A DNA stretch of 64,000 bases. It comes from Thermoanaerobaculia bacterium. Its GTDB lineage: Bacteria; Acidobacteriota; Thermoanaerobaculia; UBA5066. Below the pieces are notes generated by a model, which was not told the origin of the DNA, searched no databases, and saw only the letters and a program-made list of their open reading frames with translations. Where the stretch lies: positions 448,001 to 512,000 of the forward strand of contig CAWFJJ010000025.1 of assembly GCA_963816185.1 (NCBI GenBank), read 5' to 3'. Made by a program: the position numbers and the translations under genes. Shown here piece by piece: positions 12,526 to 45,942 of this stretch (within the stretch, counting starts at the first letter, position 1; each line of letters starts with the position of its first letter).

Positions 12526-12549
12526 GTGTGACCTCTGCTTCCGATACGA

Positions 12550-18781: not shown

Positions 18782-18825
18782 AGACGCTTCCTTCCTCTTC
18801 TCGCGCTTTTCGACGGGTTCTTATC

Positions 18826-22152: not shown

Positions 22153-22215
22153 GGCGCGTCGCGGGGGCGGGTGCCGAGGCCGGCGACGATGCGCCGGCCT
22201 CTGGCCGTCCGTCCC

Positions 22216-24239: not shown

Positions 24240-24250
24240 GGTTCCCTCCC

Positions 24251-25369: not shown

Positions 25370-25436
25370 CGCGACGATTTCCTCCAGCCGAGAGAGACGC
25401 TTATGCCATTCGGCGGGCAACAGTTAGAATGCTGAA

Positions 25437-25465
25437 AGGATAGCGACGGCGCAGACCCCGGTCAA
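25437..25465 (-). promoter_or_regulatory. Sigma70-type promoter for the tssA-tssB-tssC-tssE-tssF-tssG-clpV operon
   Basis: Minus strand TTGACC-17 bp-TATCCT, about 70 bp upstream of tssA. Confidence 0.6.
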
Positions 25466-25491
25466 GGGCGGTGCAGAAGCGAGGAGAGGTC

Positions 25492-29054: not shown

Positions 29055-32000
29055 TCAGTTCGGGAGGATGGGCGGCATCGGCTCGTCGAGCCGGACCTCG
29101 AACGCGCCCTCGAGAAGCTCCCGCGGGTTCTTCCCGTCCGGGATCTGAACGCGAATGGTCCAGACCTTCGGATCCGAGAGCTCGGTTCGCCGCTCGCTCG
29201 CGAGCCGGATGAAATAGAAGAGCTTCAGGGGCCCGCCCGTCACTTCGTAGGTGCTCGTCCATCCCCCTTCCCCGGACTGCTCGTTCCGGCCGCTGATCGT
29301 GAGGAGGGCGTCGGCCGAGCTGAGGCGCCAGACGAACGGAGGCGGAATCCGCTGGGACTTGATGTCCGTCGAGGGGCGCAGGATCACGCCCCGGTCGAAA
29401 AGCGTGATCTGCGAGACGCGGTCCTTCAGCGGGCGTCGTCCCGGGCCGGGCTCGCGGTCGAGGGCGAGGACGCTGACCTCGCGCCCGCCCGGGCCCCCCG
29501 GCTTGCCGCCAAGCGAGGCGGCCGCCGCGGAGCTGGCTCCGCTGATGAAGCGCTGCCAGAGGCGGGCGACGGCGAGGGAGCCCCGGTTCTGCAGGATGAA
29601 GTCGAAGGACGGCTCCGTGCCGCCGAGGAGCGGGTCGACCGCAAATTCGTCGGAGAGGACGCCGACTTCCGTCAGGACCCCGAGGACGTCGGCCTGCCCG
29701 ATCGTGGGGAGGTTCCGGCGGAGCGAGAGCGCGCCCGAGACGCGCTCGGCGGCGTACTCGGCTCGCTCCTGCTTCAGGCGGCTCTCCGGGATGAACGGAA
29801 ACTGTCCGGAGCAGCAGGACGCGAGCCGCTGGTAGAGGGCGTCCCACTTGGGGTTGAACTGCGGCTCGATCGCGGTCTTGATCAGGCTGGCGCCGCGGTC
29901 CTCGAGATTCTTCAGCGATCGCCCGTAGGGCCCGCCCTTGATCCTCAGGTCGCCCGTGAACGCGTGCCACCCTCTCAGCGTGGCCCCTTCGCCTCCCGTC
30001 GCGAGCTGCTTCCACGACTTCAGCTCGTCCTTGTCACCGAGCGCGCCGACGGTCTTCTTGAAAGTCTCGGCGGCGGCGAGGAGGTAGTCCGGGATCACGG
30101 CCGGCTTGGCCGAAACGCGGGCGCGCGAAACGGCTCCTGTAGTACTCGATGACGGGGTTGAGGTTCGCGTTCGTCTGGACGAACCCCTGCAGGTCGGCGA
30201 GCGTGAGCTGCCCGGCCTGGTCGGCGCGCGCCGCCTCCGCCGCCTCCGGCCGGAGTCCAGGTCCCGACGGCGATCTGGAACGTACGCCAGGCGCGGGCCG
30301 TCAGCGCGGATCCCGGGATCGTGAACCCGCCGCCTCCCGACCTCACGGGCGAGCCCGTGGCGTCGAGGAAGCGCTTCAGGTAGTCGATCTCGCCCTGCGA
30401 GAGCGCCTTGACGTCGTTCTTCGCGTCGTCGCGGGAGAGCGCGTTCGTCTGCCGCTCGGCGAGCGAGACGACGCCGTTGCCGTAAGGAATCATCATCTGC
30501 GTGAACGGCTTCTGGAAGCAGATGGCGGGGTTGCAGCCGGGGCCGATGGAGGCGGTCAGGAACTCCTGGACCGGGGGAAGCACGCGCGCGAGGAGCGCGA
30601 GCTCGGCGGTGCGCCGCGCGAAGGGGCCGACGTCGCTCGCGCGGAAGCGCGCGTCCGGAATCGTCTTCTCGAAATCCGCGGCCTTCGCGACGGACGCGTT
30701 CTTCAGGTCCTCCTGCCGTTTCTGCCACTCTTCGAGCTTCTGCTTCTTGCCGTCCAGCGAGGAGATCGTGTTCACCTGGGTCAGGATTTTTCCGTCGTCG
30801 GTCGCCCGGAAGGCGTCGAGGTCCGAGTACGCGCCGACGTCGGAGAGGAGAGAGCTGACGAGAACGGTCGGGTTCGCGAGCTTCGTCTTTCCGGGAGTGG
30901 ACGTCTCGTCGAGGAGAAACGCGAAGCCGCTCTTCTGCGCGCCCAGGTTCGCGTAGTCGACCTGGAGGCGGCCGATCAGCTCCTGGAGGCGCGACGTGTT
31001 GACGCGCGTCTGAGCCGCCGGGTGGAAGGTCGGGGCGATCGTCGCGCCGGGAAGAGAAGGCGGGGGAAGAGCCGGGAGGGGCGGCGGCGAGGCGGTGCCG
31101 GCGGCCGTCGCGGGAGCGGTCGAGGGGGCGGCGGGAGCGGCCGGTGCCGCGGCTGCGGCGCAGTGGGCGGCCCGAGCGTGAGGAGCTGCGCGTAGGACTC
31201 GGTCAGGTAGCGCTGCCATTGCTCGACGTTCGCGCCCGGGAAGCCCTTCTCGCCGGGACGGGGCGTCTCGAGGTGCTTCGTCAGCGCGTCGAAGTTCGCC
31301 TTGAACTGCTTCGCCGTGTCGGCGGTGCGCTTCAGGTAGCTCGCCTCCTGGGGGTCGACGATTCCCGTGAGCGCCGTATAGAGCCGGACCCATTCTTCCA
31401 GCCCCTTCATGAGCTTCCAGTCCCAGCGCGCGAGGTTCGCGACGGTCCAGTACCGCTCGAACGTGTCGATGGGACGGCTCGGATCGGGGACGCCGACCTT
31501 CAGGTCTCCCGCGTTCCGCCCGCGGGCGAGCTGCGTGACGAAAGCATCCGGCCGGGGGTCCGCCGGCGTGATCTGAGCGGCCCACTCGTCGATCTCGGCC
31601 GCGTACTCGCTCCCCGCGATTCCCTTCGTCTTCTGGGCGAAGTTCACGAGGCCGAGGAGGCGGAGGTCCTCCGCGCGGAAGGCGTCCGTGCCGTCCGCCT
31701 TCTTGAGGGACTGATCGAAGCCGCGCCACGCCAGGAAGCTCTGGAGAGCGCCGAAAAACGCCGAGTAGTCGGAGAAGGTCTCCCAGTTCAGCGCGGCCAT
31801 CCGCGCCTCGGACTCCTTCAGGAGCGGCCGGACGACTCCGTCGAAGAAGAGCTTCTGCTGGACGGTCGCGAGGAGGCTGTGGATCTCGTTCGACTTCGCG
31901 CCCCTCAGGAACAGGCCGAGAAGGAAGGGGTGCTGGCCGAGGCTGACGCGGTCTTCGTAGAGCAGCCGGGTCAGCTCGTACTTCTGGGCGATCGTGCAGG

Positions 32001-33447
32001 GCTGCTTCATGCAGGCCTGGGCCTGCGCGGCGTGCGTGCGGATCGGGTTCAGGATGCGCCGGAGCGAGAGGAACGCCGGGATCATCGTGATGATGATCAG
32101 CGGCAGGATCGCCCACGTCAGGATCCGGAAGACGAGCGTGGTCTTCTTCTCGCGCTCGGCGGCGGCGCGGGTTCTCGCGACGAGCCCCTGCTCGGGGAAG
32201 ACCTTCTTCTCGTAGAAGTCCTTGATGAAGAAGGCGCGCGATTTCTTGAAGATGTTCTCGAGGCTCTCGATGATGTCGCCCTGGGAGCCCGACGGGCCCT
32301 TCAGGAGGTCGCGCGTGGCCTGCGCGATCGGCTTGCCCTGCTGCACGCCGCTCGAGATGTAGAACCCGCGGAAGACGAACGGCTCGTCGTAGCGGCTTTG
32401 CGTCAGGATGCCGTCGAGGTAGCGCCGGACCGGCTCCTTCAGGGCGCTCAGCTCCTCGGGGAAGACGATGAACCGGTCGGCGTTCGCGACATTTTCCTCG
32501 CTCGCGAGGAACTTGAGCCGGAGCTTGTGGACGCGCGTGATGATCTGGTCCCAGGCCGCGTCCACGACGGCGGGGTCGTACGGCTTCTCGGGGCCGGCCG
32601 GATTCGACCAGCCGAAGAGCTGGCGCTGCTCGACCGGGTCGAGCTTCGTGAAGAACTCCGAGAAGCCGAGCGCGCGGTCGGCCTTCGTGATCAGGAAGAA
32701 GATCGGGAACCGGATGTCGAGGAGGCGCTGGATGTGGATCAGCTTCGCCCGGATGTTCTGCGCCTTCTTGTCCTGCTCTTCCGGCGTGTCCTCGAGGAGC
32801 GACGTGGCCGGAATGACGACGAGGACGCCGTTGATGGGGCAGTAGGGCCGGTGCTTTCTCAGGAGCTTGAGGAAGCTCGACCACTCCGACGCGTCGGGGG
32901 CCGCTTCCTCCTGGAACGTGAAACGCCCGGCCGTGTCGAGGATGACGGCCTCGTTCGCGAACCACCAGTCGCAATTTCGCGTTCCCCCGGCGCCCGAGAG
33001 CGCGTCTCCCCCCACGGGGAACTCGAGGCCGGAGTTCTTGAGCGTCGTGCTCTTTCCCGACTGCGGCTCGCCGATGAGGAGGTACCAGGGCAGCGAGTAG
33101 ATGTCGAGCCCCGCCCCCTTCAGGTTCTGCACCGCCTCCAGCCACTTGACGGAGAGATCCTTCAGCGCCTCGCGCACCTCTTCCTTCGACGCGCCGGCGG
33201 ACTGCGAGTCCTTTCTCAGCTCGCCCTCGAAGGCTTTGCCCTTCTGCTTCTCGCGGCCCTTGCGCAGCTGCTCGAAGATGACGACGGCCACCACGATGAG
33301 GAGCAGTCCGAGCAGGAAGAGCCACCAGTATTTCTGGAGCCCGAGAAGGTTGATGAGGAAGTAGCCCAGGGGAATGAACAGGACGGCGGCGGCGAGGTAC
33401 TTGATCGGCTTCGGAAGCCCCGAGAGCAGCGAAAGGAACTCTTGCAT
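29055..33447 (-). CDS. tssM: Large TssM/IcmF membrane-complex protein; about 3 frameshifts (near 31165, 30230, 30140)
   Basis: Two N-terminal TM helices; LPWYLLIGEPQSGKST, CDWWFANEAVILDTAGR, PINGVLV, TKAD..GFSEFF, RGFYISSGVQQG, FFIKD; third TM; divergent periplasmic part with GQFPF. Confidence 0.88.
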
Positions 33448-33452
33448 GGCGC

Positions 33453-34155
33453 CTACATGAGCCCCATCGCCAGGAGCCCCATCCCCTGCACCACGGTCCG
33501 GAGGTCGTCGACCGAGCGGGCCCACATGAGCCACGTGATCGCGTAGTAGAGGAAGAGGATCCCGACCCCGACGATCGCCACGCGGGCGAGAGTGATCGCG
33601 GGGGACAGCTTGCGCGCCGGCGCCGCCGTCACGTGATACGCGTCGGGCGTGATCTTCTCGCCCACGTCCGCGAGGTACTCCGCCAGGATTCGGTAGACGC
33701 GGTTCTTGACCTCGACGGCCTTCTCGGGGCGCTCACGGTACTTGCCGCGGAACCCGAGCGCCAGCCCGGTGAACACGATCGCCGCGAGCTCCGTGTCTTC
33801 GGGACGGAGGTCCTTGGCGATCGAGAAGAACTGGTCGCCCCCGATGTTCGTCTTGAAGTACTTCTCCTCGAAGAGGTGCTGCTCCCACTCGGCGGCTGTG
33901 GTCCCAGCCGGAATGGAGGAGGATCTCGTCCGCGAGGACGACGAGCGGATACCGCGCCTTCTCGTAGAGCGCGTCGAGCCGCGGGTCTCCCCGGGCGGCG
34001 CGCGCCTGCTCGCTGAAGATCTCCTCGAGATCGGCGGCGACGGCGTCGGGCTCGAGCCGGACGCCGCGGCGGACCTTCTGCCGGAACGCGGCGAGGAAGA
34101 GAAAGAGGCGGGAGCAGAGCCGGAACAGGTCGGTCGTGCTGTTGCTGCTATCCAC
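33453..34155 (-). CDS. tssL: TssL/DotU; frameshift near 33895
   Basis: ARYPLVVLADEILLHSGW / WEQHLFEEKYF..GGDQFF..LALGFRGKY; C-terminal TM helix; no OmpA domain. Confidence 0.9.
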
Positions 34156-35519
34156 GGGTCGCGCCCACCGGCTTGGAGACGACGTACAGGAAGAACTTGA
34201 GCTTCGGGTCGAGCATCCCCGACACCGCCATCACGTGATCCTTCGCGACGTTGGCCCAGTAGATTCCCTCTTTCTCGATGGTGAAGTAAAAGTGGTCGTC
34301 CCCGGCCGGAAGCCCCGACGGGATCCGCTTGAGCATCTCGAGATCGAGGCCGAAGAGGCGCCGCTGCCGAAGGAGCGGAATGTCGTGGACGGCGCCGACC
34401 TTCATCGTGTTGAGCCGTTCCTTCAGATCGCGCTCGGGCAGATCCGTCTCCACGGAGAGGTAGAACTCGGCTTCGCTCGTGAACCATTCGGGCTGCATGT
34501 CCGCGACGAGAAGATCGTCCCTGAGGACGAACTCGACCCGGAGGAAGCGCGAAGCGACGACCTTCTCCGTGAGCAGCTCGATGTTGTGGCAGAGGTCGAA
34601 GAAGCAGGGGCCGAGGCGGTCGTGGTCGTAGAGCGGCACCTTCAGGGGCCGGCGCCCCTCGTCGAAGATGGCGAGATCTCCGAGAAGGCGGGCGAACTCG
34701 CAGTAGACGGGGAAGGGATGGACGCGCGGGATCCGCGTGAGCTGCTGGAGAATGTAGACGAAGCTGCCGAGGATCTTCAGCTTCATCAGGGTCTGCCAGC
34801 CCGACGTCCCTTCCGACTCGATGGCCAGGCGACCCGAGGCCACCTCGGTCAGGACGAGCCGATGCTTGGCCTCGAGCCGGTTCGTGACCGACTCGCAGAG
34901 GGTCTGAAGCGCCGCGGACGCCCCGATCTCCGTCACCGGCGGGATGAAGTCCTTCGAAAGGACGGGGAAGTTCTTTCCCTGGCCCGAGCGCTCGACGATG
35001 GCGAGAGGCACGCACTCGTAGCCGTCCCGGTTCTCGGTCCCGAAGAAGAGGCGCCCGTTCACGAGGCGCGTCTCGACGGGCTGGCGGTTCGCTCCGGTGT
35101 TCTCGTCCGGCACCTCGAGGACCTCGGCGGTCAGGCGCCGGTCCTGCCCTCGCCGGTCCTCGCCGGGGAAGAAGGTATTCGGCGCGTCCTCGCGGAAGAC
35201 CGGAACGCCCAGGAAGACGTCCATCCGCCCACCCGCCTGCTCGAGCTCGGCCTTGAACGGGCGCGGAAAGATGCGGAGGTTCGAGCCGGCCGAGAGGATG
35301 GACCCGTCCTTGAGCTTCGCCTCGATGTCGCGCAGCTCGAAGACGAAGTTCTCCAGCTGATCGGCGGCGACCTCCATCCGGGTGAGGCCCCAGAAGAAGG
35401 GCTGGATGCGCCGCACCTCGTCGTGGAGCGCTCTCCTCCCGGAATCGCTCCGCCGCCTGCAGGTGATGCGGCCGAAGGAACATCCCCTCGGCCCAGAGGA
35501 CAGGCCGGCTCTTTTTCAC
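34148..35519 (-). CDS. tssK: T6SS baseplate TssK; frameshift near 35430
   Basis: VLWAEGMFLRPHHLQ / PFFWG.., FIPP, HPFPVY..LLGDL, YDHDRLGPCF; GTGA overlap with the upstream gene. Confidence 0.92.
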
Positions 35520-35989
35520 GGCTGGACGATCGTGAAGTCCCGGTCGCGGACCTGGACCCGAATCGTCCGGCCCTTCCACTGATTCCTGTTCAGGACGACC
35601 AGGTAGCGCCCCGGGTCGGCCGTCTGGAAGCGGTAGTCCGCGACGATCACGAGAAACTTGTCGTCCTTGGTCGCCGGGACGGTCAGCTCCTTCTCGCAGC
35701 GCCCCTCGGACTGCGAGAAGGTGGCGGTCCGCGTCCTGTCCCTGAGGGAATCCCGGAGCGGGTCGTAGAACCACTTTTCGCCGAGGGCGCGGATCCTCTC
35801 GACCTCGCTCTCCGTGGCCCTGACGGCGTCGACCGTGAGGAGCGTCCCGCCGTTGATCTCGGGCGTACAGGTGAAGGCGATTTTCGCCGCGGCGGAGCCG
35901 CACCCACCGGCGAACGCGGCACCGGCGATCGCGAGGGCGAGGGCGGCGAAACGAGGGAACCGGTCTGGCTTCCTGTCGGAGGTCGGCAT
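35516..35989 (-). CDS. tssJ: TssJ-like outer-membrane lipoprotein
   Basis: Signal peptide with lipobox FAGG-C; IN..LTVDAV; FLVIVADY; located directly upstream of tssK. Confidence 0.7.
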   Translation of the reverse strand: MPTSDRKPDRFPRFAALALAIAGAAFAGGCGSAAAKIAFTCTPEINGGTLLTVDAVRATESEVERIRALGEKWFYDPLRDSLRDRTRTATFSQSEGRCEKELTVPATKDDKFLVIVADYRFQTADPGRYLVVLNRNQWKGRTIRVQVRDRDFTIVQP

Positions 35990-35994
35990 CGCGT

Positions 35995-37941
35995 CTATTT
36001 CCTCTTGTTGAGCTTGTCGAATTCCGCCTGCGAGAAGCGCGCCGCGGCCTGGAGAACCTGATCCTGGACGAGATCGGGGTTGAGGTCCTTCACGAGGTCG
36101 CGATACTGGTTCCACCATTCCGCCGTCTCCCCGCGGAGCTTCCACCCCGCTCCCGGTTTCCCCGCTTCGATGACTGCCGGGCTGATTCTCTTCCAGAGCT
36201 TGGTGAACCACAACTTCGGCGCCTCGTGATGCCCCGCCGAGATGGCGATCTGCCAGCGCCGGAGCTCGGCGAGGTAGTCCCGCACGTCGTCCGGGTTGAC
36301 CTCTTTCCCCTCGGCGGCCGCGGCGAGGAACCCGCTCAGGCGGTCGCGGAAGTTCGGCAGGCGGAAGCTCGCGGTCTCGGCGCCCGGCATCGTCATCGCC
36401 TCGACGAGGCCGAGGACGAACGTCTCGACGTCCTGGGCGAAGCGGAGGACGTCGCGGACGACGGCGAGACGGGGCTCGAGCGTCGAGTCGTTGTCGTCCT
36501 CCTTCGTCAGCAAGGTCCGCCATGGCAGAGCCGCGGCGACGGCCGTCTTGGACGCGGCCGCGGCCGGACGGGAGGCTGCCTCGGCGAGACGCCGCTCCAG
36601 CTCGGCGACTCGGCGACGCAGCCGGAGCTCCTCGAGGTTCGGCACGTCGCCCGGCGCGACGACGGGGAACTGCAGTCTCAGCTGCTCCAGGACGCGCGGC
36701 CTCCTGTCGGGTTGGAGGGCATAAAGCTCCCGGACGACGAGAGACCTGAGAGCTTCGCGCCGGTCGGCAGGCGTCGAGAAGCGGTAGGCGGCGGACTCGT
36801 TGAGGAGCGCGTCGCCGAGCTCGCGCGCCTTCCGATCGAGAGCGATCTCTTCCTCGGTGAGAGGGCCGCCGGCGAGCGCCGCCCCGGGGCCGGCGGGGGC
36901 GAGGGCCTGCTCGCGCCGCGGCGCTTCCTCCGAAGGCCGCGCGACGGGAGCGGGGATCTTCTGGTCGACAAAGTCCTCCGCGGCTCTCATGGTCCTCGTC
37001 TTCTGCGAAGGCGGGCGGCGGATCTGGCCCGAGGGCGACGTGGCGGCGGCGACGAGCCGCGACGGCGGCGGAGGCGAGGGAGGAGGCGCCGGCTTCGGCT
37101 CCTCCCCAGCGCCGAGATCCCCGAGCCGGCGCGCGAGCCACGAGCCCACGGCGCTCTCGGTGTCCCGCCGGAGCAGCGTCAACAGCTCGTGGCGGAGCGT
37201 CGTCTCGAGCTCCACCGCGGACGAGTCGACGTGACTGCGCTGGCATTCCTCGATCAGGAAGCCGACCTTGGGCGAGAGGATCAGCTCGTCGGAGCCCGTC
37301 TTGAGGCCGATCGGCTGGAGGAAAAGGTCATTCAGCCACGTGTACGGGCCCGAGAAGAGACGGCCTTCCCACAGCTCCGTCAGCGCCTGCTCGCGCGACC
37401 AGCTCGCATCTCTCAGGATCCGCTGAATGCTCGCGCTGCGCGAGCGGAGGATCGAGTCGCAGAGGTGACGCGTGTCGGTGAACAGCTCGCCGCGCTGGAC
37501 GGCCGCTTCGCGGGCGCCGCGCATGATGCTCTGAACGGCCGGGTCCGGCCACGCCTCCCCCCTGAGGACGCGCGGGAACGGCATCTCCGGAAGGGGCGCA
37601 TCGACGAGCCGGACCCTGACCGGCGTCGACGAGACGAGGAAGACGTCGCCCGAGCGGATCTCGATCTCGCCCGTGACGTGGCCGGCCTGGACCGAGGTGC
37701 CGTTCGTCGACCCGGCGTCTTTCAGGAAGAGCCGGCCGCGCTCGTAGCGAAGCTCCGCGTGGGTCGACGAGACGCCGTGGCCGTACGAGAGGACGAACTC
37801 GTTCCTCGTGTTCGTCTTCTTGTCCACGGACACCCGGCCGATGTGGATCGTCGCTGGCGCGCTCCCGGCCGGGGTGACGTGGCGAAGCCCTTCCATCGGC
37901 CCGAGCCAGACCTCGACGGCGACGAAGACCGGCTCTCTCAC
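35995..37941 (-). CDS. FHA domain + Clp N-terminal-like domain + helical C-terminal protein (TagH/Fha-like)
   Basis: FHA: IGR..VSSTHAEL..DAGSTNGT. ClpN-like: AREAAVQRGELFTDTRHLCDSIL..LSPKVGFLIEE. GTGA overlap with the upstream kinase-like gene. Confidence 0.8.
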   Translation of the reverse strand: MREPVFVAVEVWLGPMEGLRHVTPAGSAPATIHIGRVSVDKKTNTRNEFVLSYGHGVSSTHAELRYERGRLFLKDAGSTNGTSVQAGHVTGEIEIRSGDVFLVSSTPVRVRLVDAPLPEMPFPRVLRGEAWPDPAVQSIMRGAREAAVQRGELFTDTRHLCDSILRSRSASIQRILRDASWSREQALTELWEGRLFSGPYTWLNDLFLQPIGLKTGSDELILSPKVGFLIEECQRSHVDSSAVELETTLRHELLTLLRRDTESAVGSWLARRLGDLGAGEEPKPAPPPSPPPPSRLVAAATSPSGQIRRPPSQKTRTMRAAEDFVDQKIPAPVARPSEEAPRREQALAPAGPGAALAGGPLTEEEIALDRKARELGDALLNESAAYRFSTPADRREALRSLVVRELYALQPDRRPRVLEQLRLQFPVVAPGDVPNLEELRLRRRVAELERRLAEAASRPAAAASKTAVAAALPWRTLLTKEDDNDSTLEPRLAVVRDVLRFAQDVETFVLGLVEAMTMPGAETASFRLPNFRDRLSGFLAAAAEGKEVNPDDVRDYLAELRRWQIAISAGHHEAPKLWFTKLWKRISPAVIEAGKPGAGWKLRGETAEWWNQYRDLVKDLNPDLVQDQVLQAAARFSQAEFDKLNKRK

Positions 37942-40085
37942 GCGCGCCCCTCGGAAGAACGCTCGCTCTCCTGAATCTCGGCAAGGATCTGCTGGATCTC
38001 GAGGTGGACCGACTGTCGCGCGAAGAGAAGAGACTGCAGCTCGGCCAGAAGCGAGGCGACTTCGGGGACGACCCGCTCGAGCTTCTCCTCCCGGAAAAGC
38101 GGGTCGAAGTCGGCGGCAGAGGCCGCGATCGAGAACCCCGCGATGCGCGTGACGAGACGGAGCGCGAGGAGGACCGCCCGCTCCCAGAGCGATTCCGGAA
38201 TGGCGTTCGGCCGGTCGCCTCGGCGGTCGTCGCGGCTCCAGAGGATCTGCGCCTTCGAGAAGGCTCCCGCCGCGTCCGGAACGCGTTTGAGGAGCGCCGC
38301 GAGCGTGACGTTCCGCCGCGCCTCGCCGGGCGCGAGCGACGCAACCTCCCGGGAGAGCCGGTCGGTCGCCTTGAGGACCGAGGCAACGTCCTGTCCGTCG
38401 TTTCTGAGCAGCAGGCGGAGCAGGGTGACGCCGAGAGCGTGCAAGTCGCTCGGCGTGCCGAAATCCGGAAAGACGCGATACCGGGCCCCGGGAATCTTCG
38501 TGCCGAGCGCCAGGCGGAGGCGGCGCATGCCGCTCTCCCCGAGCGCGACGAGATCGCTCGCGAACGCCGCCTCGTCCGAGCGGACTTCCCCGGGCGTCGC
38601 GCGCGCGGCGAGGCCGGTGAAACCGAAGTCGAGCGTCGGGTCGGGGATCGACAGGAAGATCGTGTCGCGCGCCTGCGGCGAGGGATAGAGACCGTATGCG
38701 TCGGAGACCCGGCCGCGGAGGCGGAAGCGTCGCGATCCCGTCCCTTCCTCCTCGAGGTCGGTGAAGACGAGCTCGCACGGCCGGTATCCGGCCAGGCGGA
38801 ACTCCTGGATCTCGGGGGGCGCATAGGGAACGGACAGGCCGTGTCCGGGCAGGACGACCGACGGCGATCCCGGGGCGGGGAGCGTCACCGCGGAAGCGGC
38901 CAGGCCGTGAATCCGCGCCTGAAACGTCCAGAAGAGCGGGAGGCCGTCGCCGGCTCCCGAAAGCTCGAAGAGGAGGTGGCGGGGGTGGAGATCGAGGTGC
39001 GGGCGTCCGGCGGCCCGGTAATAGTCGATGAGGCCTTCGAGGATCTGGCGGAACGCGGTCAGCTTCAGGAAGAAGATCTCGACGGCATCGAGGCCGGAGC
39101 TCTCCGTTTCGAAGAGGAGTCGACGAGTGGGTGCGGGCGCTCCGATGAGCCACGCCCAGCGCGCGGGGAGCGTCCCGCCCGCACCTGAGTTCCGGACCTC
39201 GAACTCCTCCCAGGGCCGGCCGCCGAGCGCATCGGCGAGCGCTTCCAGGTCGAGAGGAGCCGCCACGGTCACGAGGAAGGGCGACCCGTAAAGAGTCAGA
39301 GGCGTGAACAGATCCCCGGCATTCGCGCCGCCCGAGGCGTCCGGAGCGGGAAGGGAGCGCGCTGCCTTCGCGGTCTCCTCGCCGACGAGAGCTGCCGCCT
39401 CCTCCTCCGTGAAGACTTCGCGAAGAGAGCGGAGAAAATCGTCGAGAAGTTCCGAGGCGGAGCGGACGGTCGCGCCCGGCGTGCGGATCTGCGACGTCGT
39501 GTAAACGGTCGGCGCTCCAGGTCCCTCTGCGCAGCTTTCACACCAGACGAGGCGCTCCCGCGACGAGGCGTAGGGCGGGAGGCCGGTGCGCGCGAGCCAC
39601 GCCTCGTCTCGGCACAGCGAGAGCGGACTCTTGCAGACGGGGCAGGGCGGAACGAAGAACGAGCGCCCGACGCGCGAATAGAAGAGAGGAGGAAGGCGAT
39701 CCGCCGCCTCTCCCGCCGTGGAGTCGAGGCGGACGAACCGCGGGAAGTGCGGCGACTGCGCGTTGAGGTCGACGAGACGCGATCTCTCCCTCTCCCAGCG
39801 ATCCTCGACATCGCGGTTCGACATTTCGAGCGCGCCCGGCGTCACGCCGTCCGGCCAAGCGTCCGGCAGCAATTTCAGCGCACAAAGCTCGAGCAGCGTG
39901 TCGTCGTCCCCCTTCACCGCTGCGAGGTAGACGCGCGCGAGATCGTCGGCCTCCGAGAGGCGCACGAAAGGCGAATGCTCGCGGCCCTCGCCCGAGACAT
40001 CCAGGACGAGGTGCAGGCCGAAGGGAGCGCTCGCCCCCGCCGGCGGCAGGAGTCGCGCGGTCTCGATCCCTCCGGGCTCTCGCAC
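37938..40085 (-). CDS. Degenerate Hanks-type Ser/Thr kinase-like protein with zinc-ribbon insertion
   Basis: RVYLA, CALKLL (VAIK-like), CPVC..C..CESC insert, HLDLHPRHLL (catalytic-loop-like), YAPPE (APE-like), SDLHALGV (subdomain IX-like). Confidence 0.7.
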   Translation of the reverse strand: MREPGGIETARLLPPAGASAPFGLHLVLDVSGEGREHSPFVRLSEADDLARVYLAAVKGDDDTLLELCALKLLPDAWPDGVTPGALEMSNRDVEDRWERERSRLVDLNAQSPHFPRFVRLDSTAGEAADRLPPLFYSRVGRSFFVPPCPVCKSPLSLCRDEAWLARTGLPPYASSRERLVWCESCAEGPGAPTVYTTSQIRTPGATVRSASELLDDFLRSLREVFTEEEAAALVGEETAKAARSLPAPDASGGANAGDLFTPLTLYGSPFLVTVAAPLDLEALADALGGRPWEEFEVRNSGAGGTLPARWAWLIGAPAPTRRLLFETESSGLDAVEIFFLKLTAFRQILEGLIDYYRAAGRPHLDLHPRHLLFELSGAGDGLPLFWTFQARIHGLAASAVTLPAPGSPSVVLPGHGLSVPYAPPEIQEFRLAGYRPCELVFTDLEEEGTGSRRFRLRGRVSDAYGLYPSPQARDTIFLSIPDPTLDFGFTGLAARATPGEVRSDEAAFASDLVALGESGMRRLRLALGTKIPGARYRVFPDFGTPSDLHALGVTLLRLLLRNDGQDVASVLKATDRLSREVASLAPGEARRNVTLAALLKRVPDAAGAFSKAQILWSRDDRRGDRPNAIPESLWERAVLLALRLVTRIAGFSIAASAADFDPLFREEKLERVVPEVASLLAELQSLLFARQSVHLEIQQILAEIQESERSSEGRA

Positions 40086-40093
40086 TGATCGAG

Positions 40094-40122
40094 ATGATCG
40101 GTTTCTCCGGTAACGCCGTCAA
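40094..40122 (-). promoter_or_regulatory. Possible sigma70 promoter for the kinase-like/FHA/tssJKLM/tagF operon (near-leaderless)
   Basis: Minus strand TTGACG-17 bp-GATCAT ending about 9 nt before the GTG at 40085. Confidence 0.4.
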
Positions 40123-40149
40123 GAAGAGGGGGCGGCGATCCGTGCGGGG

Positions 40150-41118
40150 TCAGGCGTGGAACACGAGCCGCTGCTTGCCGAGTGTGAGCACGTCGCCGTC
40201 CACGAGCTGGACCTTGTCCACCTTCCGACCGTTCACGACGACGCCGTTCTCCGACTCGAGATCGACCACGTAGACGCCGGACGGCCCGACGATCACCTGC
40301 GCGTGCTTGCGCGAGACGTCGGGTGTCGGCAGGTGGATGTCGCTCAGGGCAAGGCGCCCCAGAACGGAGACGCCCGGCTTCAAGGGAAACTCCTTCGCGA
40401 TCCGGTCCCCGTCCAGGAGCGCGAGGCGGGCGCGCGTCAGGACGACGGTGGCCTCCGGAGGCTCGGGCGCCGCCGCCACGGGCGGCCTTCCGAACGGAGG
40501 CGGCGGCTTGATGACGTTCTCGACGGGCTCGGGGGCCGGCGGGGCCGGCGGGGCCGGAGGGGCCGGAGGGGCGGATCGCGCCTGGGGCTGCGGGGCCGGG
40601 GGGGCAGATCGCACGGGGGGCGGTGGGGCCGGAGGAGCAGGTCCCTCGGAGGCTGAGTCGGCGGTCTCGAGATCCTCCTCGGACCGGAAAGCGTCCAGGA
40701 ACGTCGCCTTCATCTGCAAGACCGCCTCGAGATCCTGGCGCTCTTCGGCGAGGTGCTTCTCACAGGCCGTAAGCCGTTCTTTGTAGGCCCCGTCCGGGAA
40801 CTCGCCCAGCTCGCGGCGGAAATCGACCTCCTCCTTATCGAATGACGCGGCCTCGACGGCCTGCTCGACCTCGCGACGCAGGGCCTGAAGCCGCCGGTAT
40901 TCGCGGCGCGCCTGCTCCTTGAGAGGCCGCGACTCCTGGTCGAGCGCCACGCGCCTCGTCTCGTAGTCCTTTCGAACCCGCTCGTACACGGCCGGCGATA
41001 CCTTCTCCGCGCGGAGCTCCATGCTCTTCAGGCGCTCCGCGAGGAGCAGCTCCTCTTTCTTGATACGGACGAGGTCGGCGATGGGGGACAGATCGATCCG
41101 GCTCAGCTCTTCACGCAT
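40150..41118 (-). CDS. Coiled-coil + Pro-rich linker + C-terminal FHA domain protein
   Basis: LGR..SDIHL..VSRKHAQV..DLESENGVVVNG..LVDGDVLTLG; N-terminal charged heptads. Confidence 0.88.
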   Translation of the reverse strand: MREELSRIDLSPIADLVRIKKEELLLAERLKSMELRAEKVSPAVYERVRKDYETRRVALDQESRPLKEQARREYRRLQALRREVEQAVEAASFDKEEVDFRRELGEFPDGAYKERLTACEKHLAEERQDLEAVLQMKATFLDAFRSEEDLETADSASEGPAPPAPPPPVRSAPPAPQPQARSAPPAPPAPPAPPAPEPVENVIKPPPPFGRPPVAAAPEPPEATVVLTRARLALLDGDRIAKEFPLKPGVSVLGRLALSDIHLPTPDVSRKHAQVIVGPSGVYVVDLESENGVVVNGRKVDKVQLVDGDVLTLGKQRLVFHA

Positions 41119-41245: not shown

Positions 41246-41734
41246 GTGAAATTCAACCGCCGGATCCTCCAGGCTTCGTTCTCGACCGCGCAGGTCGCCC
41301 GGTTGACCGGGCTCTCCGCACGGCAGCTCGATCATTGGGACCGGCTCGGGTTCTTTTCGCCGTCTCTCGCGAGCGCCAGAGGTTACGGCTCGAGGCGCAG
41401 ATATTCGTTCGGCGACGTCGTGAGGCTCCGCGTCGCGGGCCGGCTGCGCGCCGCCGGGTTCGGACTCAAGGAAGTGCGTCGTGTCGTGGAGACGCTTCGG
41501 CGCCTCGACCCTTCGAAGCCCGACGTCTCCGGCGCGCGTCTCCTGGTCGCGCAGGGGCGGGTCCTGTGGGCCCGGACCGACAGCGAGCTCGTGGATCTCC
41601 TCCACGGCGGCCAGCTCATGCTCGTCTTCCCCGTGGGTGAGACCGTGGAGGACGTCGCGCGCGCGGCGGAGTCTCTCGCGCGCGAAGCGGAGGGCGGCCT
41701 CGCGGGCGCCGTCTCGGCCCGGCGCCAAGCCTGA
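41246..41734 (+). CDS. MerR-family transcriptional regulator
   Basis: FSTAQVARLTGLSARQLDHWDRLG..GSRRRYSFGDVVRLRV..LRAAGFGLKEVR. Confidence 0.9.
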   Translation: MKFNRRILQASFSTAQVARLTGLSARQLDHWDRLGFFSPSLASARGYGSRRRYSFGDVVRLRVAGRLRAAGFGLKEVRRVVETLRRLDPSKPDVSGARLLVAQGRVLWARTDSELVDLLHGGQLMLVFPVGETVEDVARAAESLAREAEGGLAGAVSARRQA

Positions 41735-41738
41735 ACGA

Positions 41739-42839
41739 ATGCTGCCAGAAGAAGATCTCTCCGCCCGGGTATTCCGGCTGGCTCGTCTCGGGCGCGCCCG
41801 GGGCTTTTCGCGCGAGCGCTTCGAGCGCGCTCTCGCCGCGGCGAGCGTGGGCATCACGCGCAGCGAGCTCCTTCGCCTTCTCCTCGTGGAGTGGATCGGC
41901 GTGACGGCTCCCCTGGGCGACGTGCCGGCGCTCTGGGCGCGCGTCGAGCGCGCGTTCGAGAGGATGGAGAGCGCGCTCGGGCCGCCCGTGTCGCTCCAGA
42001 CGGCGCTGCTCCACGAGTTTCACAGCCGGCTCGGAAAGCTGCGGCAGCCGCGCCTCCTGTCCGACAACGAGATTTCGGCGCTTCGCGTGAACGCGATCAC
42101 GGACCCGCTCACTGGTCTTTACAACCGCCGCTTCCTGCACGACCACCTCGACCGCGAGGTCTCGCGTGCCGAGCGCGCGGGCGGAGTCGTCTCGGTTCTC
42201 ATGATGGATCTCGCGGGCTTCAAGTCCATCAACGACAGGCTCGGGCACCCGGTGGGTGACGGCGTTCTCGTGCGCACGGCGAAGGTCATTCGCGAGTCGC
42301 TGCGCGTGGTGGACGCCGGCTGCCGGTACGGCGGCGACGAGTTCGTGACGGTGCTTCCGAACAGCGACGTCGTGAACAGCCTCGCCGTCGCCGAGCGTAT
42401 CCGTCACAAAGTGGCGGGCATCCGGCTTCCCCTTCGCGTCGGCCTCAAGGTGGGCCTCAACTACGGGGTTGCGACGTTCCCGACGGACGGCCGCCTCCTC
42501 GATTTTCTCCTCAAGATCAGCGACATCCGCCTTTACGCGGCGAAGCGCCAGAACGCGAAGCCGTTCGAGAGGACGCGGCGCTTTCCGCGCTTTTGCGTAC
42601 CCGGCCTGACGTTGAAGATGGGCGGCAACGGCGCGCGCCAGGGCGCGCTCGCGGAAGTGCACGACATCTCTTACGGCGGGCTCGCCTTCGTCACGCCCCG
42701 GGAAAAGGCGCCCGACCGGCTCGAAGGCGAGATCCTGCAGCGGTACAGCGGCGAGCCGCATCGCGTGGCGATGCGGAGGGTGAACACGGTCCCCCTTTCC
42801 GACGGCCGCCTGCGAGTCGGCTGTGCCTATGTGCACTGA
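41739..42839 (+). CDS. Diguanylate cyclase (GGDEF) with C-terminal PilZ domain
   Basis: DPLTGLYNRR, FKSINDRLGH, RVVD (I-site)-AGCRY-GGDEF; PilZ motifs RRFPR and DISYGG. Confidence 0.9.
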   Translation: MLPEEDLSARVFRLARLGRARGFSRERFERALAAASVGITRSELLRLLLVEWIGVTAPLGDVPALWARVERAFERMESALGPPVSLQTALLHEFHSRLGKLRQPRLLSDNEISALRVNAITDPLTGLYNRRFLHDHLDREVSRAERAGGVVSVLMMDLAGFKSINDRLGHPVGDGVLVRTAKVIRESLRVVDAGCRYGGDEFVTVLPNSDVVNSLAVAERIRHKVAGIRLPLRVGLKVGLNYGVATFPTDGRLLDFLLKISDIRLYAAKRQNAKPFERTRRFPRFCVPGLTLKMGGNGARQGALAEVHDISYGGLAFVTPREKAPDRLEGEILQRYSGEPHRVAMRRVNTVPLSDGRLRVGCAYVH

Positions 42840-42874
42840 CCGTCTTTTGTCGGGAGCGTGCCCGTGAAGGATTC

Positions 42875-44207
42875 ATGGAGACGGGTGCAATCAGCGGCAG
42901 CGCGCACGCGTCCCCGGAGGCCGATCTGGACGGGCGCCCGCCGCTGAGCGCCGCCGCACGGGCCGGTCTTTTCGGGCCGGCCCTCCTGTCCCTGTCCCTC
43001 CTCGTCCTGCTCGCCTCGGGAGCCGTCGCGTCCGCCGACGTGCCGCTCGTCGCGGCTCTCGCGGCTTCCGCGGTGTTCGCAGGAGGGCTCCTCGCCACCT
43101 CTCTCGCAGCGCGGCTCCTGGGCCCGTTCGCCGCGCCGCTCCGCCTTCTCGTGCCGCTTTGCCTCGCGCTCGTCGCGCTCGCGAGGACGGGCGGCCCCTC
43201 GAGCGACCTCTTCCCGCTCCTCCTGGTGCTCGTCGCGGTCGAAACGGCGATCTCGCGTGAGGGCGGGCGCTTCCTCCTCGTGGGCACGTATGCAGGCCTG
43301 GTCCTCCTCGTCGTCCTCTTCCCGGCGCCCACGGCCGCGGCGGCGCGGTCGCTCGCGCTGCGTTTTCTCTGGCCGGCCGCGGCGGCCTTCGGAGTCGAGC
43401 TCGTGCTCCGCGGAACGGCGCCCGGGCGGAATAGCGGCGCTCAGGATGCGCCCGCGCCCGTCCGGCAGGTCGTCGAGAGCGCACCCGCGAGCGCCGCGTC
43501 CGTTCGCGATCATGCGGAGCGAGATCCTTCACGACCTGAAGTCGCCGCTCACCGTCCTTCGCGTTTACGGCGACCTCGTGGCCGAGGCGGCGCGGCGCGG
43601 CGAGCTGCCCTCTGAAGCGCACCTCGCGGGCCTCGCACGCGAGCTGACGCTCATGGAGACCCTCGCCGGCATGCCGCCGCGCGCGCCGGCCTCCGCGCCG
43701 GGCGCGTCCCCGGCCGGCCCGCCCGCCCCTCCGGTCCTCCCGCGCTCCGATCTCGTGCGCGTGCTCGCGACTCTCGTCGAGTCGTACCGGCTCGCCCACG
43801 GCGAAAGGGTGCGCCTCGAGTTCGTCGCCGAGGGCGCGGAGATCCCCGTCGCCGCGGATCCCGTCGCGCTCCAGCGCGCGTTCCGCAACGTGCTCGACAA
43901 CGCGGTCAAGTACACGCCCGCGGGCGGACAGGTCCGCGTGAGGGCGAGCGTCGTCGCACAGCACGCGTTCGTCGTGATCAGCGACACGGGCGCCGGGATG
44001 ACGCCGGAGGAGCAGAAGCATGCGTTCACGTTCGCCTGGCGGAGCCCGTCCGCATCGGCTTCCGGCGTGCCGGGGCGGGGAATCGGCCTCGGCGTGACGA
44101 AAGATCTGCTCGAGAAGAACGGCGGGAAGATTTCGCTCCTCTCCGAGCCCGGCCACGGCCTCGAGGTCACGATCATGTTTCCCGTCGCCCGCGAGGCCGG
44201 GGCGTGA
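42875..44207 (+). CDS. Membrane sensor histidine kinase; frameshift near 43510
   Basis: Multi-TM N-term (frame of 42593..43615); second frame ILHDLKSPLT (H box), NVLDNAVKY, DTGAG, GRGIGL. Confidence 0.85.
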
Positions 44208-44593
44208 GCACGCGCATCTTCGTCGTGGATGACGACCCGGCGATGATCGAGGCGGTGGCCGCGGTCCTGTCGCTCGACGGCTTCGACGTGGACGGAGCGA
44301 GCGACGGCGCCTCGGCGCTCCGGGCCGTCCTCCAGGACCCGCCGGCGCTCCTGATCCTCGACGTCGGCATGCCCGGGCTCAGCGGCTGGGAGCTGTGCGA
44401 GATCATGCGCCGCCAGCCCATGACCCGCGACCTGCCCATCCTCTTTCTGACGGGGCGGGGCGAGGTGCGCGACCGGATCACCGCGATGCAGGTCGGCGGA
44501 ACCGATCACCTGACGAAGCCGTTTCGGGCCGAGGAGCTGCGGGCGCGCGTGCGTGCCCTGACGGTCCAGGTGCCTGGAAAAGGAGCATCATGA
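44204..44593 (+). CDS. Single-domain response regulator receiver
   Basis: VVDDD, ILDVGMPGLSG, FLTG, TKPF. Confidence 0.92.
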   Translation: MSTRIFVVDDDPAMIEAVAAVLSLDGFDVDGASDGASALRAVLQDPPALLILDVGMPGLSGWELCEIMRRQPMTRDLPILFLTGRGEVRDRITAMQVGGTDHLTKPFRAEELRARVRALTVQVPGKGAS

Positions 44594-45942
44594 CGAAAGT
44601 GCCTCGCACGGATTCCCTGAAGCTCGTCGCGGAGCGATCGCCTGTCGACGTGCCCGAGATCGAGAGGTTGCGTCTCGAGTCGCTGCTCCACGACGCCGTC
44701 ACGGGCTTGACGCTGCATCCTTTCGCCGACCTCAAGGGAGAGCGCGTCGCGAATCTCGGAGTCATCTACATCCAGCTCGGGCGCTTCGCGGGCGTCGAGA
44801 GTCTTTACGGATGGGAGCTCTACGACCGGATCCTGCGCGTGACGTCGGCGAGCCTTCGCGAGGACATCACGGCCTCGCCTCTCGCCCCGGGCCTTCTCGC
44901 GATGTCCTTCAACGGCTCCGACGGCGTCTTTCTTCTCTTCGACGTCGCGCGGCGCGCTCCCGGACGGCACGGCGTCACGCTGGAGGCGGAGGCCGCGCGT
45001 CTCCGCCAGGGCGTCGGGCGCCGCCTGAAGCAGGCGCTCGGACGCTCCGCCGTCGACCTCATGCACATTCACGCGACTGCGCTCGTGGTTCCCGACGATC
45101 CGCGCGTGCGGCCGTCACGGCAGGTCATGCGCGCGCTCGCAGAGGCGGCGCGGCTCGCCGACGCGCGCGAAAGCGGCGAGAAGAAGTCGTTCGTCGAGAG
45201 GCTCAAGACCCTCCTGTCCGCGAAGAAGCTGCGCGCGGTCTTCCAGCCCATCGTCGGCGTGACGTCGGGCGAGGTCCTCGGCTACGAGGCGCTCATTCGG
45301 GGGCCGGCGGGCCACGAGCTCGAGATGCCCGACGAGCTCTTCGCGGTGGCGCGTGAGGGAGACCTCCTCCTCGAGCTCGAGAGCCTCTGTGTCGAGACGG
45401 TCTTCTCGTCGCTTCCCAGGGCCGCGCGAAAGAAACGCCTCTTCGTGAACGCGTCGGCGCGCCTTCTCACGCACTCCGTGTTCCTCGACGACCGCAATCT
45501 CGCCGAGATGGGCCGGGTCCACGGGGACATCGTTCTCGAGCTCTCGGAGAAGGAGGTCGTCTTCAATTACCCGGCGTTTCGCGAGGTCGTCGGGCGGCTG
45601 CGGGCGTCCGGCTTCGGGTTCGCGATCGACGACGCGGGCTCGGGCTACTCGGGCCTCGAGTCCATCGTGCAGCTCCGGCCGGAGTACGTGAAGGTGGCTC
45701 ACACGCTCGTCGCGGGCCTCGACAAGGACCGGATCAAGCGCGAGATCGTGGGGTCGCTCGCGTCACTCGGCGAGCGCATCGACGCGGAGCTGATCGCCGA
45801 GGGCATCGAGAGGCGTGGCGAGCTGGAGAGCCTTCGTAGCCTCGGCGTCCCGTGGGGACAGGGCTTCCTTCTCGGGCGTCCCGCCGCCCGCCCGGTCGTG
45901 ACGCGTCCGGGGGCGCGCGGCGCCGGCGAGGACGTCTGCTAA
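44590..45942 (+). CDS. EAL c-di-GMP phosphodiesterase with degenerate N-terminal GGDEF-like region
   Basis: FQPIV..YEALIR, FVN, ELSE, IDDAGSGYSGL, EGIE, QGFLLGRP; N-term DAVTGL..YGWELYDRIL..NGSDGV. Confidence 0.9.
   Translation: MTKVPRTDSLKLVAERSPVDVPEIERLRLESLLHDAVTGLTLHPFADLKGERVANLGVIYIQLGRFAGVESLYGWELYDRILRVTSASLREDITASPLAPGLLAMSFNGSDGVFLLFDVARRAPGRHGVTLEAEAARLRQGVGRRLKQALGRSAVDLMHIHATALVVPDDPRVRPSRQVMRALAEAARLADARESGEKKSFVERLKTLLSAKKLRAVFQPIVGVTSGEVLGYEALIRGPAGHELEMPDELFAVAREGDLLLELESLCVETVFSSLPRAARKKRLFVNASARLLTHSVFLDDRNLAEMGRVHGDIVLELSEKEVVFNYPAFREVVGRLRASGFGFAIDDAGSGYSGLESIVQLRPEYVKVAHTLVAGLDKDRIKREIVGSLASLGERIDAELIAEGIERRGELESLRSLGVPWGQGFLLGRPAARPVVTRPGARGAGEDVC

Follow-up and report, generated by a model that had tools for sequence, protein, structure and literature searches.

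A predicted pseudokinase and its TagH-like FHA partner at the head of an acidobacterial type VI secretion locus

How is a type VI secretion system (T6SS) controlled when the genes around it include neither the kinase nor the phosphatase known for this role? Nearly all that is understood of the post-translational control of T6SS firing comes from Proteobacteria, where it runs through PpkA, PppA, Fha, TagF and TagQRST. The question is raised by a locus in a Thermoanaerobaculia bacterium, for which we have analyzed a stretch of 64,000 nucleotides (the window; C25:448001-512000) from a genome of 5.09 Mb in 30 contigs with a GC content of about 68%. The proteins of the window have close homologues in metagenome-derived genomes labelled Thermoanaerobaculia, Holophagales or Acidobacteriota. 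Profile scans of the open reading frames (ORFs) in the window reveal one complete T6SS-i locus at 41118-14651 on the minus strand, headed by genes for a coiled-coil FHA protein (cc-FHA), a kinase-like protein of 715 aa (KL) and a TagH-like FHA protein. We propose, with a probability of roughly 0.55, that these three proteins form a module for the post-translational control of one T6SS that is canonical in other respects, and that KL serves there as a scaffold complexed with TagH that is non-catalytic, or weakly or atypically catalytic. An earlier note on this DNA, made from the sequence, had already seen a regulatory module in the three genes. They are present and intact at 35995-41118 (minus strand) as that note gave them, and the GTGA overlap it reported between KL and the following FHA gene is exact, with the TGA stop at 37940-37938 and the GTG start at 37941-37939. 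The TagH N-terminus read from this GTG start (EVWLGPMEGL) is kept in homologues. The whole genome has exactly one TssK and exactly one KL.

What kind of protein is KL? It matches no Pfam or NCBIfam family even at E ≤ 10, except for a weak zinc-ribbon match described below, and no curated family covers it. At the same threshold the protein kinase model PF00069 (Pkinase) fails to match KL, and none of its 91 matches in the genome lies at the KL locus. A word-indexed search gave 95 homologues, none with a functional name; those that are named are called 'hypothetical protein'. We prepared an alignment and a profile from 47 homologues of 38-86% identity to KL. Searched against 1.84 billion proteins, the profile had matches at E ≤ 1e-3 to 1162 representatives of clusters formed at 50% identity, 323 of them at E ≤ 1e-30. 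KL thus belongs to a large family.

The evidence for kinase homology comes from comparison of profiles. Aligned by hhalign with 34 Pkinase domains of the same genome, the KL profile gave P = 5.8e-7, with a probability of 92% in local and 97.7% in global mode. A reversed kinase profile gave P = 0.36 and an unrelated profile 0.46. The C-lobe alone gave P = 2.4e-7 and aligned with template positions 110-264, which is the correct region. The N-lobe alone gave P = 0.0023, collinear with template positions 7-82, and the insert alone gave no match to the kinase profile. The proposal that the 715-aa protein is kinase-like is supported by this comparison. Searching PDB sequences with the KL profile gave 18 weak matches, of which 17 are protein kinases (MELK, BRSK2 and EIF2AK1 among them). 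These match mostly at the stretch of αE and the catalytic loop, with E values of 0.15 and weaker; the top-scoring match is RecO, with E = 0.12. By ESM Atlas features, the first four ranks, and the majority of the ten rows shown, belong to Pkinase clusters, with a score of 0.94. Two distant members of the family (P0282 and P0300) have sub-threshold matches to Pkinase of their own, with E = 2.5e-5 and 6.8e-6. The kinase-like fold of KL is well supported by these sequence profiles; structure comparison, discussed below, has left it unconfirmed.

The residues that are invariant in the 47 homologues are K71, E100, H363-L-D365-L-H367-P-R-H370, R391-x-H393-G394, P420-Y-A-x-x-E425, D547...G552 and R621. 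We read them as the Hanks landmarks of a kinase, so that they would correspond respectively to the β3 lysine, the αC glutamate, the HRDLKPxN loop, DFG, APE, the αF aspartate and the αH-I arginine. K71 and E100 were placed using the weaker N-lobe alignment together with the positions of strand and helix in the AlphaFold2 (AF2) model. That model has a predicted local distance difference test (pLDDT) score of 82 and a predicted template modelling score (pTM) of 0.83. In the model the kinase core is split by two inserts. The first, about 190 residues (146-333) between the N-lobe and αE, comprises a Cys4 ribbon, helices and a disordered loop; the second, about 110 residues (432-540) between the APE motif and αF, is β-rich. 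The Cys4 motif is C148-x2-C151...C182-x2-C185. Each cysteine is at least 90% conserved in the 47 homologues, and in 150 representatives of the family, aligned to the profile with hmmalign, cysteine is found at the four positions in 112, 87, 90 and 85 sequences. Residues 146-191 have a weak match to the Pfam zinc-ribbon family Lar_restr_allev (E = 0.019), and the zinc ribbon noticed earlier is thus present as a putative Cys4 insert. KL is probably soluble, as had also been suggested. Its most hydrophobic stretch of 19 residues reaches a score of only 1.76 and forms a helix in the core of the model; there is no segment like a transmembrane (TM) helix.

Is KL an active kinase? In the clade of the window, the asparagine of the catalytic loop is replaced by His370 and the aspartate of DFG by Gly394 (following His393), while an acidic sequence SE-ADD-LARVY is found where the GxGxxG loop is expected. 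Both canonical metal ligands and the Gly-rich loop are therefore gone, and the prediction that the protein is catalytically impaired is upheld at the level of sequence. We regard 'predicted pseudokinase' as the best label for the KL of the window. The same proteins retain the β3 lysine, the αC glutamate and the HRD aspartate (K71, E100 and D365), invariant in the 47 homologues. The broader family is more varied. Among the 150 representatives, positions of structural importance are nearly fixed, with H363 in 128, P368 in 122, D547 in all 136 that are ungapped there, G552 in 133 and R621 in 102. The catalytic positions drift. Position 365 is D in 49, G in 29, A in 23 and N in 18, and position 370 is N in 48, H in 39, R in 17 and S in 14. 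The position of the DFG aspartate (394) is D in 57 and G in 56, and relatives of canonical appearance have (I/V)-I-D-L-(A/G). Six long members (P0282, P0300, P0312, P0325, P0241 and P0304) have a canonical LDLKPEN loop together with I-D-L-(A/G) at DFG. Fusions of KL to FHA in Planctomycetota have the loop LG(V/L)xPxN with IDLG. Since the catalytic residues drift through the family while the linkage or fusion to TagH persists, the pattern suggests a common function of the family that needs no phosphotransfer.

These data bear directly on a different reading, in which KL is an active atypical kinase and a true equivalent of PpkA. K71-E100, D365 and His367, His370 and His393 would then constitute a remodelled site, either Mg-independent or with a metal liganded by histidine; it would phosphorylate TagH (at T362, for example) or TssL, and the FHA domains would read the mark, giving a self-contained cytoplasmic switch. 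The invariance of K71, E100, H363, D365, H367, H370, R391, H393 and G394 over the 47 homologues argues for this, and the canonical LDLKPEN and I-D-L-(A/G) motifs of distant members indicate that likely active kinases are among the ancestors, or still among the members, of the family. CASK has Mg-independent kinase activity without a DFG aspartate. Yet there is no Gly-rich loop, the DFG aspartate has become glycine and the catalytic asparagine histidine. Moreover, the catalytic aspartate has gone from 92 of 141 ungapped representatives in a family whose linkage or fusion to TagH persists, including the fusions with LG(V/L)xPxN. On balance we consider an active kinase unlikely. The remaining invariant residues fit a site that selection still maintains, and that might bind a nucleotide or a metal or have an atypical catalytic activity.

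We regard the 648-aa partner as a variant of TagH that has a Clp_N-like domain in addition. Its parts are, in order, an FHA domain (residues 34-102), the Clp_N-like domain (approximately 129-274), a disordered linker rich in Pro, Ser and Thr, and a helical C-terminal region like T6SS_FHA_C. The protein scores 15.7 bits with PF20232 (E = 0.014, against a cut-off of 23.7) and 18.3 with the TagH model TIGR03354, thus failing the cut-off of 120.25 bits. Among 34 homologues, all have the FHA domain, 16 have T6SS_FHA_C at E ≤ 0.01 (best 9.4e-5) and three have Clp_N (PF02861) at E ≤ 0.01 (best 5.9e-9); precomputed annotation places PF02861 on 15 of 120 listed homologues. The TagH of the window itself has no sequence match to PF02861. 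In an AF2 model of residues 105-648, residues ~129-274 have pLDDT of ~84-93, and the matches listed by Foldseek in the PDB are, with one exception at rank 36, Clp-family N-domains or relatives of ClpT and ClpC2. They include ClpC, ClpB, ClpA, Hsp104 and the N-domain of Vibrio cholerae ClpV, with a probability of ~1.0, template modelling scores of 0.46-0.63 to the target and E values of 0.065-0.5. The model supports, without proving, the double four-helix fold of a Clp N-domain, and the description of this gene as an FHA-ClpN fusion was right.

The FHA domain appears able to bind phosphothreonine (pThr), as residues G35, R36, S58, H61, N80 and G81 are invariant in the 34 homologues. Towards the end of the linker, position 362 is T in 28 homologues, S in four and A in two, in the context T-x-x-(E/D) followed by LD. 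From this conservation we infer that Thr362 is a candidate phospho-site and FHA ligand. A further conserved motif, R387-F388-S-T-P-x-D-R394-R395 (36772-36798, minus strand; given as residues 382-390), is found in a loop between helices of the C-terminal half. It is invariant or nearly so in the 34 homologues, and its S/T-P would be a second candidate phospho-site beside T362. A prediction of the complex of full-length KL with TagH residues 400-648 scored 0.01, which counts neither for nor against binding.

Is the association of KL with TagH general? A scan of contigs from other genomes gave 42 KL loci, all in Acidobacteriota-type metagenome-assembled genomes (MAGs) except one labelled Acidithiobacillales. 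In 39 of the 42, the next gene downstream of KL encodes a TagH-like FHA protein; the remaining three break off at KL or within it. All 29 loci that reach far enough have the order KL-TagH-TssJ-TssK-TssL-TssM-TagF, in agreement with the earlier view that the module heads tssJKLM-tagF. A scan of metagenomes seeded with fused forms gave eight further loci, of which three (L046, L048 and L050) are too short for the order to be read. L044 has the order just given. L045 has a protein with two FHA domains, KL, a protein of 247 aa comprising only the TagH C-terminal domain (TagH_C), TssK and TssM. In L047 and L049, KL is followed by a TagH_C-only protein of 237 aa, TssJ (SciN in L049), TssK and the genes that follow. 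The TagH of the window does not match the 237-aa protein of L049 significantly (BLASTP E = 0.057). From its size this gene of 237-247 aa might have been a PppA; it has a weak T6SS_FHA_C match and no PP2C domain in Pfam, which rules this out. KL is fused to FHA in eight of the 150 representatives, those with names being from Planctomycetota. T6SS_FHA_C is also present in three of the KL-FHA fusions that were scanned, and in addition in L043. The possibility that KL is an effector or immunity gene was set aside, as its place ahead of tssJKLM is conserved and it occurs fused to TagH.

KL also co-occurs with one type of T6SS. In a sample of the class, TssK is present in 12 of 121 genomes, our own included. 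KL was found in eight of the 11 other TssK-positive genomes, and in none of six TssK-negative genomes tested. In the three TssK-positive genomes without KL, the TssK itself is clearly of another kind (E = 1e-39 to 1e-47, compared with ~1e-81). In an even sample of the phylum, KL was found in one of 200 other Acidobacteriota genomes, with five candidates scored per genome, so that weak matches may be missed.

The loci with a TagH_C-only gene suggest another role for KL, that of a structural or assembly adaptor with no part in phospho-signaling. It would make phospho-independent FHA contacts, using its fold as a scaffold to bridge TagH to the membrane complex or baseplate, or to recruit ClpV or the sheath through the Clp_N-like domain of TagH. 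Across lineages the constant neighbor of KL is the C-terminal domain of TagH and not FHA, and in L047 and L049 no FHA gene was detected nearby. The binding of a pseudokinase to FHA domains without phosphorylation also has a precedent in type VIIb secretion (T7SSb; 10.1101/2020.05.09.085852). However, the FHA domains of the present module keep all the canonical pThr residues, unlike those of YukB/EssC (10.1101/2020.05.09.085852), and FHA recurs with KL in three architectures: fused, downstream, and as an upstream protein with two FHA domains. A pure adaptor therefore seems to us a good deal less probable than a scaffold acting within a phospho-signaling module.

If KL does not phosphorylate, where might the signal come from? 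No Pkinase match lies in the window, the nearest of the 91 in the genome being at C25:438229, C25:440759 and C25:534563. PP2C_2 has three matches in the genome and none in the window, the nearest at C25:442669, 4.7 kb before the window starts. No gene like TagQRST, an ABC transporter or TagR was found among the window ORFs scanned, several small ORFs remaining unscanned; the other scanned ORFs encode cyclic di-GMP and two-component proteins, a resistance-nodulation-division (RND) efflux system, a polyprenyl synthase and putative effectors. The window thus has no PpkA, PppA or TagQRST, as the earlier note had observed. In related loci, a hidden Markov model (HMM) derived from the kinases of this genome had no match in 48 of 51 sequences (50 loci and the window), matching L011 and L016, and L035 weakly. 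The rarity of canonical kinases at the locus would suit an active KL, as would the preserved pThr-binding residues of the FHA domains. A PP2C HMM made from three sequences, and of low sensitivity, had no match in the 50 loci or the window. Outside the window, at C25:438-443 kb, there is a cluster encoding a Ser/Thr kinase (639 aa), a zinc-ribbon DUF1451-like protein (183 aa), a second Ser/Thr kinase (385 aa) and, on the opposite strand, a PP2C phosphatase (427 aa). It occupies positions 4142-9172 of C25:434001-448000, 41-48 kb from KL beyond genes unrelated to T6SS, with the nearest PP2C at ~41 kb. This is a possible trans-acting kinase and phosphatase pair for the FHA module. The pThr-binding residues are preserved in both FHA domains, and the module is therefore probably still fed by a genuine kinase. 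The earlier note had held that PpkA is replaced here, giving a different activation switch. No PpkA lies at the locus, but replacement is only partly supported, given the retained pThr residues and the 91 Pkinase and three PP2C matches in the genome; and a different switch is a conjecture, the GR, SxxH and NG residues of the FHA domains arguing that threonine phosphorylation is still the signal.

cc-FHA is probably the first gene of the operon. It has an N-terminal half like a coiled coil, a Pro-rich linker and a C-terminal FHA domain with the GR, SxxH and NG motifs. It is found upstream of KL only in the clade of at least 68% identity, in 13 of the 42 loci, with an opposite-strand copy in L016. 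In an unrelated lineage (L045, L046, L048 and L050) a different protein with two FHA domains is upstream of KL. FHA partners have thus been recruited repeatedly. The second FHA gene reported earlier is real, but it is a clade-specific addition and not part of the conserved core. Divergent from the operon at 41246-45942 (plus strand) are five genes, encoding MerR, GGDEF-PilZ, a histidine kinase, a response regulator and EAL. This set of cyclic di-GMP and two-component genes is conserved only in the five closest loci (L001-L004 and L012).

We read the whole as post-translational T6SS control of the threonine phosphorylation type, having a degenerate kinase-like partner of TagH. In outline, a bona fide Ser/Thr kinase of the genome would phosphorylate a threonine, which could be T362 in the TagH linker, a site in KL or a site in TssL. 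The intact FHA domains of TagH and cc-FHA would read the mark. KL, in contact with TagH, would then either hold it in, or free it from, a state able to nucleate the assembly of TssJLM and TssK. TagF would oppose this by sequestering TagH, as it does in Pseudomonas, Agrobacterium and Serratia; TagF holds TagH in Proteobacteria (PMC13584744; PMC5995506). A bolder version would make KL a remodelled enzyme, whose Lys-Glu pair, Asp365 and His367/His370/His393 bind nucleotide in the absence of the usual Mg ligands, and which phosphorylates or otherwise modifies Thr362 of TagH. With two FHA readers and the Clp_N-like domain it would be a fully cytoplasmic firing switch, independent of PppA and TagQRST, in the T6SSs of Acidobacteriota, Planctomycetota and other little-studied phyla. 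This more elaborate version is doubtful, slightly more so than an active KL as such.

Several observations weigh against a control module built on a scaffolding KL. The Foldseek comparison of the whole KL model with the PDB, which the earlier note had proposed, did not recover the kinase fold; there is no kinase among the matches listed, and none at E ≤ 0.001. The top rows (helicases and gyrase) were discarded as meaningless, having template modelling scores of ~0.1. The failure may be due to the two large inserts that split the kinase core in the model. The site residues K71, E100, D365, H367, H370 and H393 are invariant in homologues whose identity falls to 38%. A canonical kinase lies near the module in two loci, L016 and L011. 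In the latter, a long ORF with a canonical kinase domain (2242-5079, plus strand; E = 8e-74 with the local HMM) is directly upstream of a KL 71% identical to ours, where the window has cc-FHA. The fused KL-TagH of L043 is flanked by 10 kb on each side without a T6SS gene. This KL-FHA-T6SS_FHA_C protein of 1060 aa (10043-13225, plus strand) is encoded among housekeeping genes, beside an extracytoplasmic function (ECF) sigma factor. In three genomes (G208, G282 and G228) separate contigs carry KL and TssK, and context was sampled at ~50 loci of a family with 1162 representatives.

Finally, the interruption of TssM (three frames) and TssF (two frames) means that the system here may be non-functional, or that the assembly contains indels. 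tssF (19815-21670, minus strand) matches its profile at positions 1-353 in one frame and 362-608 in the other, split at a 4-nt overlap. The interruptions are either assembly indel errors in GC-rich low-complexity DNA or the sign of a decaying locus. Decay, leaving the module non-functional in this genome, would account for the broken frames of both genes. But the genes for KL, TagH, cc-FHA, TssK, TssB/C, ClpV and Hcp are unbroken and have a strong codon bias, the changes of frame fall in part within GC-rich DNA of low complexity, in which assemblies often contain indels, and TssM is intact in relatives, being a single ORF of 1403-1461 aa in seven of seven checked. We think decay very improbable.

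The features of the locus are collected in Table 1. From the start of transcription the genes are cc-FHA, KL, TagH-like, a 157-aa lipoprotein, TssK, TssL, TssM, TagF and Hcp. Past Hcp come TagJ/ImpE, on the plus strand, and then TssA, TssB, TssC, TssE, TssF, TssG, ClpV and a VgrG fragment, the remaining T6SS genes of the complete set lying at 14651-26304.

Table 1. Coordinates and supporting evidence for features of the T6SS locus in the window
Feature	Position	Strand	Evidence
cc-FHA, 322 aa	40150-41118	-	Pfam FHA E 8.4e-16, residues 252-314
KL, 715 aa	37938-40085	-	No Pfam or NCBIfam family at E ≤ 0.01; kinase-like by hhalign
KL Cys4 zinc-ribbon-like motif (C148, C151, C182, C185)	39531-39644	-	Conservation and weak Pfam match
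KL catalytic-loop equivalent H363-L-D365-L-H367-P-R-H370 (canonical HRDLKPxN)	38976-38999	-	hhalign; hmmsearch against MELK
KL DFG equivalent R391-I-H393-G394	38904-38915	-	hmmalign of 150 representatives
TagH-like protein, 648 aa	35995-37941	-	Pfam FHA E 1.6e-10; T6SS_FHA_C E 0.014
Clp_N-like helical domain of TagH, residues ~129-274	37117-37554	-	AF2 model and Foldseek
TagH Thr362, end of linker	36856-36858	-	T in 28 of 34 homologues; putative phospho-acceptor and FHA ligand
T6SS_FHA_C-like stretch of TagH, residues 529-631	36049-36357	-	PF20232 E 0.014, below cut-off
157-aa lipoprotein in tssJ position	35516-35989	-	Lipobox '...AGGC' in translation; position
tssK	34148-35416	-	PF05936 E 1.6e-76; TIGR03353 E 8.2e-68
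tssL (DotU)	33453-34151	-	PF09850 E 1.8e-15
tssM, three frames (33447-30976, 31009-30095, 30098-29055)	29055-33447	-	IcmF-related_N E 3.3e-65
tssM N-terminal part	within 29055-33447	-	TIGR03348 E 2.1e-101
tagF, 482 aa	27565-29013	-	PF09867 E 1.1e-10; TIGR03373 E 3.9e-11; no PP2C domain
hcp	27026-27517	-	PF05638 E 2.6e-27

The 157-aa lipoprotein owes the name TssJ only to its position and lipobox. It has no Pfam match even at E ≤ 10, SciN (PF12790) included, and no significant similarity to the SciN-positive ORF of L049 by BLASTP (E = 9.2). A lipoprotein recurs at the tssJ position in related loci. In TagF only residues 19-117 correspond to TagF_N, the remainder having a long low-complexity tail rich in Pro and Ala and no recognized domain. 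Beyond clpV there are three putative T6SS cargo genes, all on the minus strand: an AHH-nuclease-like ORF (6137-7222), a Peptidase_M91 'effector protein' ORF (13261-14313) and the VgrG piece (14651-15424), which matches Phage_GPD at profile positions 135-303 only. Outside the main cluster, an ORF of 501 aa (1561-3066, plus strand) has matches to VipA/TssB (E = 1.5e-7) and also to VipB/TssC (E = 6.5e-62), and has the look of a fused paralogue of the sheath proteins; the next ORF (3066-3743) has no Pfam match.

Judged on the titles and abstracts listed, the literature on T6SS with pseudokinase, TagH or Acidobacteria yielded no published description of a T6SS pseudokinase or of KL. The strict synteny and the fusions that link this large unannotated family to TagH, in two phyla or more, suggest that an alternative control module is widespread. 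KL, from a family mostly lacking catalytic residues, would add a new T6SS-associated gene (TAG), and such discoveries outside model organisms are expected by a 2026 review of T6SS accessory factors (PMC13584744). With active sites that range from canonical-looking to degenerate, the family also provides a natural series in which to study how a kinase becomes a scaffold. The carriers of the module are uncultured.

How does the module compare with known systems? The closest is the PpkA/PppA/Fha1/TagF pathway of the Pseudomonas aeruginosa H1 system, Serratia and Agrobacterium. In both, a gene with a kinase fold adjoins TagH and tagF in a T6SS-i locus, TagF is present and the pThr-binding residues of the FHA domain are preserved. 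PpkA has an active Ser/Thr kinase domain, a TM segment and a periplasmic sensor domain, and TagQRST or RtkS act upstream of the pathway. KL, in contrast, matches neither the Pkinase model nor a PpkA model (NCBIfam). Its catalytic Asn and DFG Asp are replaced and a Gly-rich loop is missing; neither a TM segment nor a periplasmic domain is predicted for it, and it has the Cys4 and β-rich inserts. Its locus has no PppA or TagQRST, its TagH carries the extra Clp_N-like domain, and there is a second, coiled-coil FHA protein. Canonical TagH/Fha1 (TIGR03354, PF20232) shares with the present protein an N-terminal FHA domain, a C-terminal T6SS_FHA_C-like region and a place upstream of tssJKLM, but differs in score (18.3 for ours against 120 bits) and in having no Clp_N-like domain after FHA. 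The threonine phosphorylation pathway has been described in several papers (PMC5995506, PMC3953482, PMC6082577), and the roles of TagE, TagG, TagH and TagF in it have been reviewed (PMC13584744). In the portion of that review available to us, the only kinase listed is TagE/PpkA, and neither the FHA-Clp_N-T6SS_FHA_C architecture nor Acidobacteria or Planctomycetes are mentioned (PMC13584744).

The pairing of a pseudokinase with FHA domains in a secretion machine resembles EssB/YukC and EssC/YukB of T7SSb, where YukC, through its pseudokinase domain, forms a stable complex with the FHA domains of YukB (10.1101/2020.05.09.085852). KL-TagH would be the second such pair in a secretion machine. The likeness is one of architecture. 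YukC is a membrane protein of Firmicutes, and its FHA partners lack the pThr residues and are bound independently of phosphorylation (10.1101/2020.05.09.085852), whereas KL is predicted to be soluble, belongs to another secretion system and has FHA partners that keep those residues. A further comparison can be made with mycobacterial MviN. The dead kinase domain of MviN is phosphorylated by PknB and is then bound by the FHA protein FhaA. That system serves cell-wall synthesis and not secretion; as a working model for KL and TagH it is nevertheless the closer in logic.

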